Below, one piece after another: positions 58,379 through 61,152 of a stretch of 64,000 nt of DNA. The first letter of the stretch is position 1. Every line of letters begins with the position of its first letter. Origin of the DNA: Longimicrobiales bacterium (GTDB lineage Bacteria > Gemmatimonadota > Gemmatimonadetes > Longimicrobiales > Gaopeijiaceae); NCBI GenBank assembly GCA_965198065.1, contig CBDAON010000004.1, positions 2,624,001 through 2,688,000 of the forward strand, written 5' to 3'. A program made the translations under genes and the position numbers. The notes beneath the pieces are model-generated. The model saw only the letters and a list, made by a program, of their open reading frames with translations. It was not told where the DNA came from and did no database searches.

Positions 58379-59246
58379 CGACCAAGGATATTCTCCAGCC
58401 CAGGGAAGCCTTGGCGTGATGTACGACAATGGTTACGGCGTCCCCGAAGATGACGCTGAAGCCCTACGCTTGTATCGGCTTTCCGCCGCACAGGGGTTCG
58501 CTGCCGCTGAGTACAACCTTGGCGTGATGTACGACAATGGCGAGGGCGTCCCCGAAGACGATGGGGAGGCCGCACGCTGGTATCGGCTTTCCGCCGAGCA
58601 GGGGTTCGCTGCCGCTGAGTACAACCTTGGCGTGATGTACGACAATGGCGAGGGCGTCCCCGAAGACGATGGGGAGGCCGTACGCTGGTACCGGCTTTCC
58701 GCCCAGCACGGGTTTGCCGCTGCTCAGCACAACCTCGGCGTGATGTACGACGATGGCAACGGCGTCCCCGAAGACGATGGGGAGGCCGTACGCTGGTATC
58801 GGATGGCTGCGGAGCAAGGGTACGTGATCGCCCAGTTCACACTTGGGGTGATGTATAGCGGGGGTGAAGGCGTCCCCGAGGACGAAGCCGAAGCTGTACG
58901 CTGGTATGGATTGGCGGCTGAGCAGGGAGATGCTCTAGCCCAGACCAACCTTGGGGTCATTCTCGCTCAGCGCTGGTATCGGTATCAGTTGCAGGGTACG
59001 CTGGGGGATGCTCTGGCCGAGGTTGACTTCGGATTGGTCCAGCAGGACCTAGTCCTCGCCTTCATGTGGTTCACGCTCGCCGCAGCGCAAGGAAACGAAA
59101 CTGCGGAAACGAACAAGGGCAGAATCGAGGAGTGGCTGACTCCCGATGAGATCACCGAGGCCCAAAGGCTGTCCCAGGAGTGGATAGACACCCACCCCCA
59201 GGACGGGGGCGAGCCGTCGGAGACAATCCGAACTCCAAGTTGTTAG
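58377..59246 (+). CDS. Sel1-repeat protein, N-terminus lost to the IS fragment
   Basis: [31 protein letters not shown] repeats; C-terminal [12 protein letters not shown]...EAQRLSQEW. Confidence 0.88.
58409..58960 (+). repeat. 108-bp tandem repeat (about 5 units) encoding the Sel1 motifs
   Basis: CCTTGGCGTGATGTACGAC-like starts at 58409, 58517, 58625, 58733, 58841, 58949. Confidence 0.9.
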
Positions 59247-60205
59247 CAACTGTGTGCGAACTCAAGCTCTGAAGCGTGGGTGGGGTCCCAGGATACGCCG
59301 TCTCGAACCATAGCGTTGGCGATCACAAGCAACTTACGCATGCAGGCGGTGAGGGCGACTTTCGGAGGCTTGCCACGTTCTGTGAGCCGCTGGTAGAAGA
59401 CGCGGATCGCGGGATTACGCTGACTAGCGGTCAGGGCCGCCATGTACAACGCCACGCGTACGGAACGACGGCCTCCCCAGACCATTCGCTTACCTCTCAA
59501 CGTACCCGAGTCCCGGTTCAGAGGGGCGACGCCGGCAAGCGCAGCGATCTGTTGCCGGTTCAGCTGCCCGAGCTCGGGGAGCTCTCCGATCAGCGTGCGT
59601 GAGACGAGCGGACCGATCCCCGGTACGCTCCGCAGCAGATCCTCCTTCGCGCGCCACACCGGGCTCGCCTTGATACGACGCTCGAGTTCCGAGTCCACGG
59701 ACTTCAGCTTGCGCTTGAGCCACTCGATGTGCTCGCCGATGTCCTTCGCCACCGTGGTGGACGCCATCTTCAGCCGGTTCTTCTCCGCGACCATCATCTC
59801 GAGCAGTTGACGACGACGGGCCAGAAGGGCCGTTAACTGCTGGGTGTCCTCGTCCGGCAGCACCCGCACCTCTGGCCGCACCCGCTCGCCGAACAGCGCC
59901 AATACCCTCGCGTCGATCCGGTCCGTCTTGGCGAGCTGGCCCGTTGCCCGTGCGAAGTCGCGCACCTGCCGCGGGTTCGCTACCACCACCGGGATCCCCG
60001 CTTCGGCGAGTGCCGCCGCCGCCGGCATCTCGTACCCGCCGGTCGCTTCCAGAACGACTAGCTCAACCGGACGGTCGCACAGCTGCTCAACAAGCACTTC
60101 GATCCCAGATTCGTCGTTCGAGACCGTCCACCCCTCGTCTTCTACCGCCACCTCGAGCTCCGCCTTTGAGACATCGATCCCTACGTACGCCTCGGCCTCA
60201 GACAT
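59243..60205 (-). CDS. IS110-family DEDD recombinase/transposase
   Basis: [32 protein letters not shown] catalytic Ser. Confidence 0.96.
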
Positions 60206-60404
60206 CCCTCTCTCCAGACTCGGGAGGATGATCGTGCATCGTCCTACCTTGCAGATCCGGGCTCCCTCGGCCCCAACAACTGTTCGGACTCATCACGATC
60301 TAGAAGGGACGGCGCCCACGCTAACAATCGGTCTCTAGGACCCTAGGCGGGACGGGCTACCGACCCTGTGTACCCAAGAAACTACCTATTCGTCGTCATA
60401 CAAG
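59245..60404 (-). mobile_element. complete IS110-family element bounded by CT cores
   Basis: minus strand CGTCCAC-CT-TGTATG ... ACAGTTG-CT-AACAAC; about 197-bp non-coding left end; no terminal IRs. Confidence 0.9.
60210..60392 (-). ncRNA. putative IS110 bridge RNA (boundaries approximate)
   Basis: guide-like segments CGUCCCGCCU (60354-60345), UUGUUAG (60327-60321), ACAGUUGUU (60283-60275) and UGCAAG (60253-60248) match target and donor in the expected order. Confidence 0.8.
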
Positions 60405-61152
60405 GTGGACGTCTGTACGTTCTGGCGAGGGCAAGGTCAGCGATCCCGGCCTTGATGTTGCGGGCCTACGCTTACGCTTCTAGGTCGGTGGCCGCCCCAC
60501 GGAAGGTACCGGACTCCTCCGGAGCACGGGAGAGTCAGCCCACACAATGTTTGAACTTGGGGATCTAGCGAGGCGATGCTGCGCCCCCTTTCGAACCCCC
60601 GGCTCCCTCGCCGCCGCCCGCGTATCGCTGGCGGAACTCGCCGACTGGCGCGCTAAGGCCATCGCCGCCGCCGTGTCGCTCCTGGTCTATGGATCCTTCG
60701 GCGGAATAGGCAGCGCCGGTGCGGGGCGGTGGACTACCAGTTCGCCAGCCACGCGCCCGTGAAAACGTCGGCAATCGCCGCGACTGAGGCCCTGTGCGCG
60801 GCCGACCGTGCGAGGGCACGGGCCTCAACCAAAGGGAACGTCGAGCCTAGAGTTGGTTTTTGGGATCCCCAGGGATGTTGGAAGCCCCGGCCCGCGAGTC
60901 CCAGGCCCGATCGCTTCCCCGGCCCGAAGCCGGTCGAGACAGTCGGCCCGGCGCTTTTTCGGACTGCCGTGCTCTCGAAAACACCGCTAGCAGGTGCATA
61001 TGCCGATGCTTGGGATTCCCGCCAATCGATTCCGCATTTCCCGCTATCGTGACTCGATGGAATCAGATATCCGCCAACGGCAAGTGCGGCAGATCGTGCA
61101 GTCCTAGTTGAACTTAGAAGATTTCTTGCCTTGCATCACGTCATCTGTACTC

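Follow-up and report, generated by a model that had tools for sequence, protein, structure and literature searches.

The window analyzed here is a stretch of 64,000 nucleotides (nt) from the genome of a Longimicrobiales bacterium of the Gemmatimonadota (assembly GCA_965198065.1, contig CBDAON010000004.1, positions 2,624,001 to 2,688,000), and the element in question, found on its minus strand between 60404 and 59245, is very probably an intact insertion sequence (IS) of the IS110 group, with an IS621-type recombinase and a predicted bridge RNA whose guides match both its donor and the sites that its copies occupy. The target guides co-vary with the target flanks across 46 orthologs, and the recombinase gene depends on the landing site to complete its stop codon, as it has none of its own. 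The aligned copies and orthologs suggest that this clade reads about four bases to the left and five to the right of its CT core, tolerating G-U and G-T wobble pairs. The element is ordinary in kind, with a modest twist that consists of a short left target guide (LTG), a long right target guide (RTG), and the borrowed stop, and it opens no new mechanism.

The element, its boundaries, and its recombinase

A preliminary description of this DNA, made from the letters alone, had proposed an IS621-type bridge recombinase with a CT core, a left-end RNA in which the LTG, the RTG, the left donor guide (LDG), and the right donor guide (RDG) follow one another, and a target preference of its own, and the protein, the structure, the multi-copy motif, and the ortholog covariation agree with this proposal. 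The junctions that it quoted (60411-60398, with the core at 60404-60403, and that with its core at 59246-59245) are present at those positions, as are its four guide segments. The parts of the element are as follows.

60403..60404, minus strand: left copy of the CT core; CT at 20 of 21 left junctions, with a depth step
59245..59246, minus strand: right copy of the CT core; CT at 19 of 19 right junctions
60405..60411, minus strand: left target arm, positions 1-7; guide support at positions 4-7 only
59240..59244, minus strand: right target arm, positions 10-14, of which 10 and 11 finish the recombinase stop, 59245-59243
60398..60402, minus strand: right donor arm, the start of the left end; contains 60400-60395, a weak -10-like hexamer for the promoter predicted at the circle junction
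59247..59253, minus strand: left donor arm, the end of the right end; encodes the last recombinase residues
60206..60402, minus strand: non-coding left end of 197 nt, the predicted bridge RNA
59243..60205, minus strand: IS110 DEDD/Tnp recombinase of 320 amino acids (aa), with D11, E53, D95, D98, and S233 and the wedge residues Y254/M255/L258; its frame traverses the donor arm and the core

The two CT cores lie 1,156 bp apart (1,157 bp in the relatives), and the left end of the window element is one base shorter, near 60377, than that of most relatives, at a site outside both loops of the RNA. This left end is long and non-coding, the right end falls entirely within the open reading frame (ORF), and long terminal inverted repeats are lacking, as is typical of the group. 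The hallmarks of the IS1111 group (an RNA downstream, sub-terminal inverted repeats, and the top-strand guide first) are absent, given that the RNA lies upstream and the bottom-strand guide comes first.

The boundaries, with a CT core at both ends as originally proposed, are supported by three lines of evidence. Near-identical copies in four other genomes have a common sequence that extends from one CT core to the other and diverges just outside, the contigs of four public runs have, between approximately 59245 and 60405, a depth several-fold to more than 100-fold higher, and the unfilled paralog of a site that is filled in two genomes (G340 and G345) contains a single CT (C4:1362252-1362251, minus strand, in G000, the source genome of the window). 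A right boundary at a second CT (59239-59238), prompted by two copies with seven common flank bases, was ruled out by positions 15-16, which vary among the 19 junctions.

The source genome has three copies, including that of the window, of which the second (C4:1722227-1721391) has its right side cut off, while the third (C4:2057428-2058579) has its left side cut off and an internal duplication of approximately 130 bp. Copies with 99% identity are present in G139 (13 copies), G331 (four left ends and three right ends), G345, and G340. The ordered pattern of four guide segments occurs only twice in the 3.05-Mb genome, in the two copies that retain their left end, and the chance expectation per 197 nt of this genome is 0.0009 for the 7-mer of the RTG and 0.0018 for that of the LDG, which places the pattern beyond chance.

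The protein has the N-terminal DEDD RuvC-like domain and the C-terminal Tnp domain with a catalytic serine that define the IS110 family, and it matches PF01548 (DEDD_Tnp_IS110) and PF02371 (Transposase_20) in Pfam, as well as NF033542 in NCBIfam (232 bits against a cut-off of 140). Its only matches in the PDB are ISCro4 and IS621, with E-values of about 1e-41, ISCro4 (9t56) being the best (E 1.4e-41). Residues D11/E53/D95/D98/S233 align with D11/E60/D102/D105/S241 of IS621, and Y254/M255/L258 with its wedge residues, as given in PMC11208158. The protein cluster has 225 members, and none of the 40 members listed carries a named entry.

Predicted bridge-RNA fold and the reading of the target

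The left end is predicted to fold into two loop modules that carry the four guides.

60305..60367, minus strand: target-binding loop module in the RNAalifold consensus, with an outer stem with a bulged A (60358), an internal loop, and an inner hairpin (60342-60330)
60345..60352, minus strand: LTG, short form; covariation at 60350-60347, plus the core at 60346-60345, with 60354-60353 as scaffold
60321..60327, minus strand: RTG of 7 nt (core plus five bases), with the handshake bases next to it at 60320-60319
60230..60300, minus strand: donor-binding loop module, with an inner hairpin at 60273-60259
60276..60283, minus strand: LDG of 8 nt, with seven Watson-Crick matches and, for the first core position, a U predicted to wobble
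60248..60256, minus strand: RDG, discontinuous as in IS621 (AU, two looped-out bases, GCAAG), with handshake bases at 60247-60246

The preliminary description had suggested that the left end be folded and aligned with orthologs, and the RNAalifold consensus of 25 left ends does yield two modules with internal loops, in which both target guides lie outside the stems and 18 of the 29 pairs have compensatory changes. In a hand-built model, four helices are 86-98% paired, with a covariation that none of the 500 shuffles and none of the slid controls attains. The two helices of the target-binding module are 86% and 98% paired, again with compensatory changes, and the inner helices of the donor module reach 93-98%, with only the outermost stem, which is poorly aligned, at 40%. 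Rfam has no family at gathering score over the element.

The target motif, which reads nnnCCRC-CT-RACRA, was derived from the distinct junctions of near-identical copies, 21 on the left and 19 on the right, two of them from paralogous sites. On the left arm, C is found at position 4 in 17 of the 21 junctions, at position 5 in 11, and at position 7 in 20, with G (12) or A (4) at position 6, and on the right arm the counts for positions 10-14 are A14/G5, A19, C17, A13/G5, and A18. Twelve of the 14 departures on the right side are of the wobble type, with G-U or G-T permitted (p 0.0006 against an assumed 0.40). Positions 1-3 and 16 hold little information, and position 15, which is G or C at 18 of the 19 junctions, does not match the next base of the RNA.

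The same reading emerges from the orthologs, of which 60 distinct left ends were reduced to 54 elements by the removal of near-copies of the window element (L002/L003/L096) and three faulty rows, namely L150, with a mis-called end, and L130/L131, with a duplicated start and a deleted LTG; five rows without a CT in the LTG and those with a flank cut by a contig end were also removed. In the 46 orthologs, the guide matches the flank base at positions 4-7 in 27, 35, 39, and 43 cases (15, 15, 18, and 31 when permuted), and at positions 10-14 in 45, 44, 42, 42, and 40 (30, 33, 28, 21, and 13 when permuted), and only 9, 12, and 18 matches were found at positions 1-3 (p 0.30, 0.25, and 0.10). As the 10,000 permutations behind these values ignore kinship, tree-independent pairs with differing guide bases were also compared, and a flank fitted its own guide rather than the swapped one by 38:1 for the right arm, 34:5 for positions 4-7, and 12:6 for positions 1-3. 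The covariation of guides and flanks that had been put forward as a check is thus found at positions 4-7 and 10-14.

The extent of the two target guides differs from what had been described. The RTG at 60327-60321 is present as proposed, and it reads five bases past the core, positions 10-14 co-varying; longer RTGs in some orthologs were noted by Durrant et al. (PMC11208160). On the other hand, the bulged LTG of 10 nt (60354-60345) did not hold, since its first two bases, a near-invariant CG, are scaffold (corresponding to the linker bases C47/G48 of IS621), only target positions 4-7 co-vary, and in this register positions 1-3 are matched at only 9, 3, and 3 of the 21 sites. An IS621-like LTG of nine bases over all seven left-target positions is likewise absent, this being a property of IS621 rather than part of the definition of the family. 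Between the scaffold G and the inner stem there are 9 nt, rather than the 11 of IS621 (9 or 10 in 55 of 57 ortholog rows), which accounts for a shorter LTG. With about four bases read on the left and five on the right, and wobble tolerated, the element would be promiscuous, and the wobble-compatible motif has 14 matches in the genome.

It is highly improbable that the target is chosen by the protein or by a DNA structure, such as the hairpins of integron attC sites, with the guide matches being secondary. Hairpins of the attC type are present at 14 of the 37 ortholog right junctions that start with CTAAC, against 7 of the 691 genomic CTAAC sites (11/37 and 8/691 under a first, stricter rule), but the guides change together with the flanks in independent pairs, and the wobble-type tolerance points to RNA-DNA pairing. 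When attC sites were considered as the main target of the window element itself, they were rejected, as its own CTAAC junctions are not enriched in them: none of the 12 qualifies under the first rule, and only one does under a looser rule adopted once the data had been seen.

An attC-like RYYY/AAC inverse core was observed at the right junctions of the orthologs L013, L020, L022, L106, L108, L113, L120, and L122, and of L132, L134, L138, L141, L145, and L146, which are IS110 elements with a left-end RNA aimed at integron sites. In the source genome, CTAACAA-type sites, some of them attC-like, are clustered at C4:241800-246100, a possible cassette array.

The donor guides were described correctly only in part. 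The LDG segment at 60283-60275 is present, with its ninth base not a guide position, and that of the RDG at 60253-60248 is also present, although its register was wrong: as in IS621, two bases are looped out of the guide, which spans 60256-60248. Where the preliminary description had placed the pairing partner of donor position 13, the 54 ortholog rows have T (31), C (20), or G (3). The LDG agrees with the left donor in 43 of the 47 elements scored, including five of six variant donors, and, given that the element ends were chosen by donor-like patterns, with the right donor invariant by that choice, the conservation of the donor is partly built in. The handshake bases of the window element fit post-exchange pairing, and the first of those in the donor loop has a weak covariation across orthologs (p 0.03).

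Mobility and the flanks of the window copy

In run X5, a contig of 444 bp follows the right flank of the window copy as far as the core, where it passes into another left arm, a perfect match at positions 4-7, and in a contig of 255 bp the left flank reaches the core and is followed by eight letters that start with a one-wobble right arm. A contig of run X4 likewise departs from the left flank at 60403, this evidence consisting of one contig each among the loose ends listed. The left junction is found in run X1 and the right junction in run X2, with neither run having both, and the partner of the right flank is absent from the source genome. As each flank in X5 runs on at the CT into a different guide-matching partner, the window copy is probably a hybrid whose left and right flanks derive from two different insertions, as a result of recombination between copies or of assembly, in which case the single empty target that had been reconstructed from both flanks would never have existed. 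An empty site for these flanks was not found in 41 relatives, 301 genomes of the family, or a metagenome collection.

The idea that the bulged LTG reads all seven left-target bases, with both flanks derived from one pre-insertion site, is quite doubtful: the left flank of the window itself fits that register with one wobble, but the poor matching at positions 1-3 among the copies, the orthologs, and the independent pairs, as well as the different partners in X5, argue against it. Only slightly less doubtful is the possibility that the window junction is an assembly chimera of two collapsed repeat copies, so that no cell has both flanks on one element. This would agree with a near-identical repeat of 1.16 kb that no contig of the four runs spans as a whole stretch, with the separate junctions of X1 and X2, and with the missing partner of the right flank; on the other hand, one of the four contigs of the assembly, with 2.87 Mb, passes through identical IS copies by the dozen, which means that repeats of such a length were resolved, and recombination between two copies would yield the same pattern.

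The left flank (60405-60580) has no ORF of its own of at least 80 aa near the junction and no homolog in the 301 family genomes except for a chance match of 29 bp, and partial repeats of 60620-60520 occur elsewhere in the genome.

By analogy with IS621, the element would most likely be excised or copied out to a circle in which its right and left ends are joined, and a weak promoter formed across this junction would then drive the expression of the bridge RNA. This RNA may assemble with a recombinase tetramer, which would carry out a serine-linked exchange of the top strands at the CT and an RNA-guided insertion at nnnCCRC-CT-RACRA, with the handshake pairing favoring insertion. The remaining part of the predicted promoter is the following.

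59260..59265, minus strand: -35-like hexamer, which would be spaced by 17 nt from the -10-like hexamer once the circle junction is formed; a weak prediction, with 8 of the 12 consensus positions matched

No promoter or terminator was found in a scan of the linear form. The RNA runs X15 and X16 contain fractions of 0.29 and 0.23 of the sequence words, values that do not count as evidence of expression.

Several observations weigh against the interpretation of the element as an RNA-guided system of the IS621 type. Folded singly, the left end is no more stable than its shuffles (z +0.51), and its guides are then partly paired (mean unpaired probability 0.39-0.60), and the consensus fold draws four weak pairs between the LDG and the RDG, invariant or nearly so, which reflect their shared core. 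The second handshake base has no covariation across the orthologs (p 0.66), position 5 of the target is matched at just 11 of the 21 sites and position 3 at 7, and a single genome (G139) supplies 13 of the sites. The junction promoter has only the 8 of 12 matches given above, and a TTGA-type -35 at that spacing is present in only 17 of 46 orthologs, nor was a circle joint found in the contigs of four DNA runs, which drop rare forms. Finally, at its left junction the second copy sits within an IS3-type element, and in the 22 other copies of that element the core dinucleotide is CG, not CT.

The flank of this second copy (C4:1722227-1722222) belongs to a 95% variant of the IS3-type element, which either had CT at this point or received a non-canonical insertion; no CT-bearing variant of the site was found in five genomes.

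The hybrid flanks and the non-CT site of the second copy may also be explained if the same element moves mainly by copy-out, or direct top-strand transfer, together with half-match events, rather than by clean double-strand cut-and-paste, a reading that is possible, though it falls short of being probable. Such routes have been described for CazIS110-1 (10.1101/2025.10.25.684509) and IS621 (10.64898/2026.08.31.748434), and the 13 copies in G139, the weak matching of the left arm, and the site of the second copy would be in line with them. The sequence by itself fits either route equally, however, post-excision sites have been detected for IS621 (PMC13626964), and matching of the right arm is tight at 19 of 19 sites, so that donor-only half-matches are not needed to explain them.

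A stop codon completed by the landing site

The recombinase frame passes through the left donor arm and the core, and its stop (59245-59243) consists of the T of the core and target positions 10-11, a TAA or TGA being formed at all 19 right junctions of the near-identical copies. Among the 47 scored elements, 18 read through the core in this way, all of them with a stop-making guide; in 28 the stop falls 12-28 nt ahead of the core, and the remaining one crosses it in a different frame. Two read-through orthologs at non-stop sites have longer tails. Without a stop of its own, the gene would give a slightly longer enzyme from the circular form, in which the frame is predicted to gain five residues, LYDDE, before a stop (325 aa). 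The circle is regarded as the source of strong expression (PMC13626964), so the predominant form of the enzyme may be that of 325 aa, and this possible extension calls for a careful choice of the coding sequence. In cis, a change to RTG positions 10-11 would abolish the stop.

Target-completed stops occur in other IS families. A literature search that did not cover subscription papers, ISfinder, or bioRxiv supplements returned no statement of a target-completed stop or a short LTG for IS110.

Selection of the guide to supply the stop was considered, given a stop-making guide in 18 of 18 read-through elements against 21 of the 28 others (Fisher p 0.03), and was set aside, since the trait is clustered on the tree, where one origin is possible, stop-making guides are common in early-stop neighbors, and two read-through elements sit at non-stop sites, so no selection is shown. 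It is also unlikely, if conceivable, that the clade lost its own stop and that the target-completed stop acts as a state switch, with the 320-aa enzyme produced only at sites that supply TAA or TGA and a form with a short acidic tail, encoded by the left end, from the circle. Such a switch and the short-left/long-right target loop would together link any reprogramming of the guide to the C-terminus of the enzyme, with a bias of excision against insertion.

Related systems and genomic surroundings

The closest parallels are with IS621 (PMC11208160, PMC11208158, PMC13626964; PDB 8wt6), which shares the DEDD, serine, and wedge residues, the CT core, the LTG-RTG-LDG-RDG order of the left-end RNA, the LDG of 8 nt, the discontinuous RDG, in which donor position 12 forms a G-T wobble, and the handshake positions. 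The IS621 donor that the preliminary description gave, ACAGTAT-CT-TGTAT, is that of the Durrant supplement (PMC11208160), and it is identical to the window donor at 12 of 14 bases. In contrast, the recombinases are only about one third identical, as counted from the PDB alignment, IS621 reads seven bases to the left and two to the right of the core rather than four and five, and the window element has a shorter LTG, a degenerate target, and an ORF without a stop of its own. ISCro4/IS622 (10.1101/2025.05.14.653916; PDB 9t56) has the same architecture and a recognition window of 14 bp, and is distant in sequence.

The IS1111 group, including the attC-targeting ISKpn4 and ISPst6 (PMC11187229), belongs to the same superfamily, and some orthologs of the window clade also lie in attC-like sites, but in that group the RNA is downstream, the guide order is reversed, and the sub-terminal inverted repeats are long, unlike the upstream RNA and bottom-strand-first guide of the window element.

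The clade is already represented in the discovery data, given that the 14-mer of the window donor occurs 424 and 188 times in two supplementary files of Durrant et al. (PMC11208160) and that the RuvC/Tnp rows of the cluster IS492;ISGme8, with its neighbors ISRfsp2 and ISNme5, in Supplementary Table 1 share long peptide stretches with the window protein. The RNA strings of the window element itself were not found in the searchable supplements of that paper, one file being partial and one unreadable. The discovery group has screened 72 orthologs (10.1101/2025.05.14.653916), and a literature search, with subscription papers and ISfinder not covered, returned no paper that joins IS110, bridge RNA, and a Gemmatimonad, or IS110 and a missing stop codon. 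The element extends the known bridge recombinases by one that is multi-copy and recently mobile and that belongs to a little-studied phylum. Its approximately 20 natural insertion sites give direct evidence of which guide positions matter and of a tolerance for wobble pairs, and it may offer tool builders a natural scaffold with a long RTG and a short LTG, though a promiscuous one.

Other features of the orthologs were also recorded. At the left junctions of L041/L092 and L098, there is an extra T between the core and the left end (or the core is TT), which may be a homopolymer error or a one-base slip, and, once L098 is re-parsed, its guide matches at positions 4-7. In L129, L130, L146, and L150, tandem or nested left-end starts lie upstream, with two donor-like starts 48-87 nt apart. 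The elements L021, L027, L030, and L148-L157 are inserted in a repeated GTCATY-CT-GARCG motif, with eight or nine copies in one genome, and this motif is probably a REP-type repeat.

The unfilled paralog of the target in the source genome lies inside a frame (C4:1362330-1362173) that presumably resembles an IS256-family transposase. In the window, the right core partly coincides, on the opposite strand, with the TAG stop of a Sel1-repeat gene (58314-59246, plus strand), which the insertion therefore leaves intact. The surrounding region (49000-64000) is an IS-rich island of lower GC content, with several copies or fragments of IS3-family elements, a phage-integrase fragment (61187-61627), and a tRNA-Leu(CAA) at 55347-55433.

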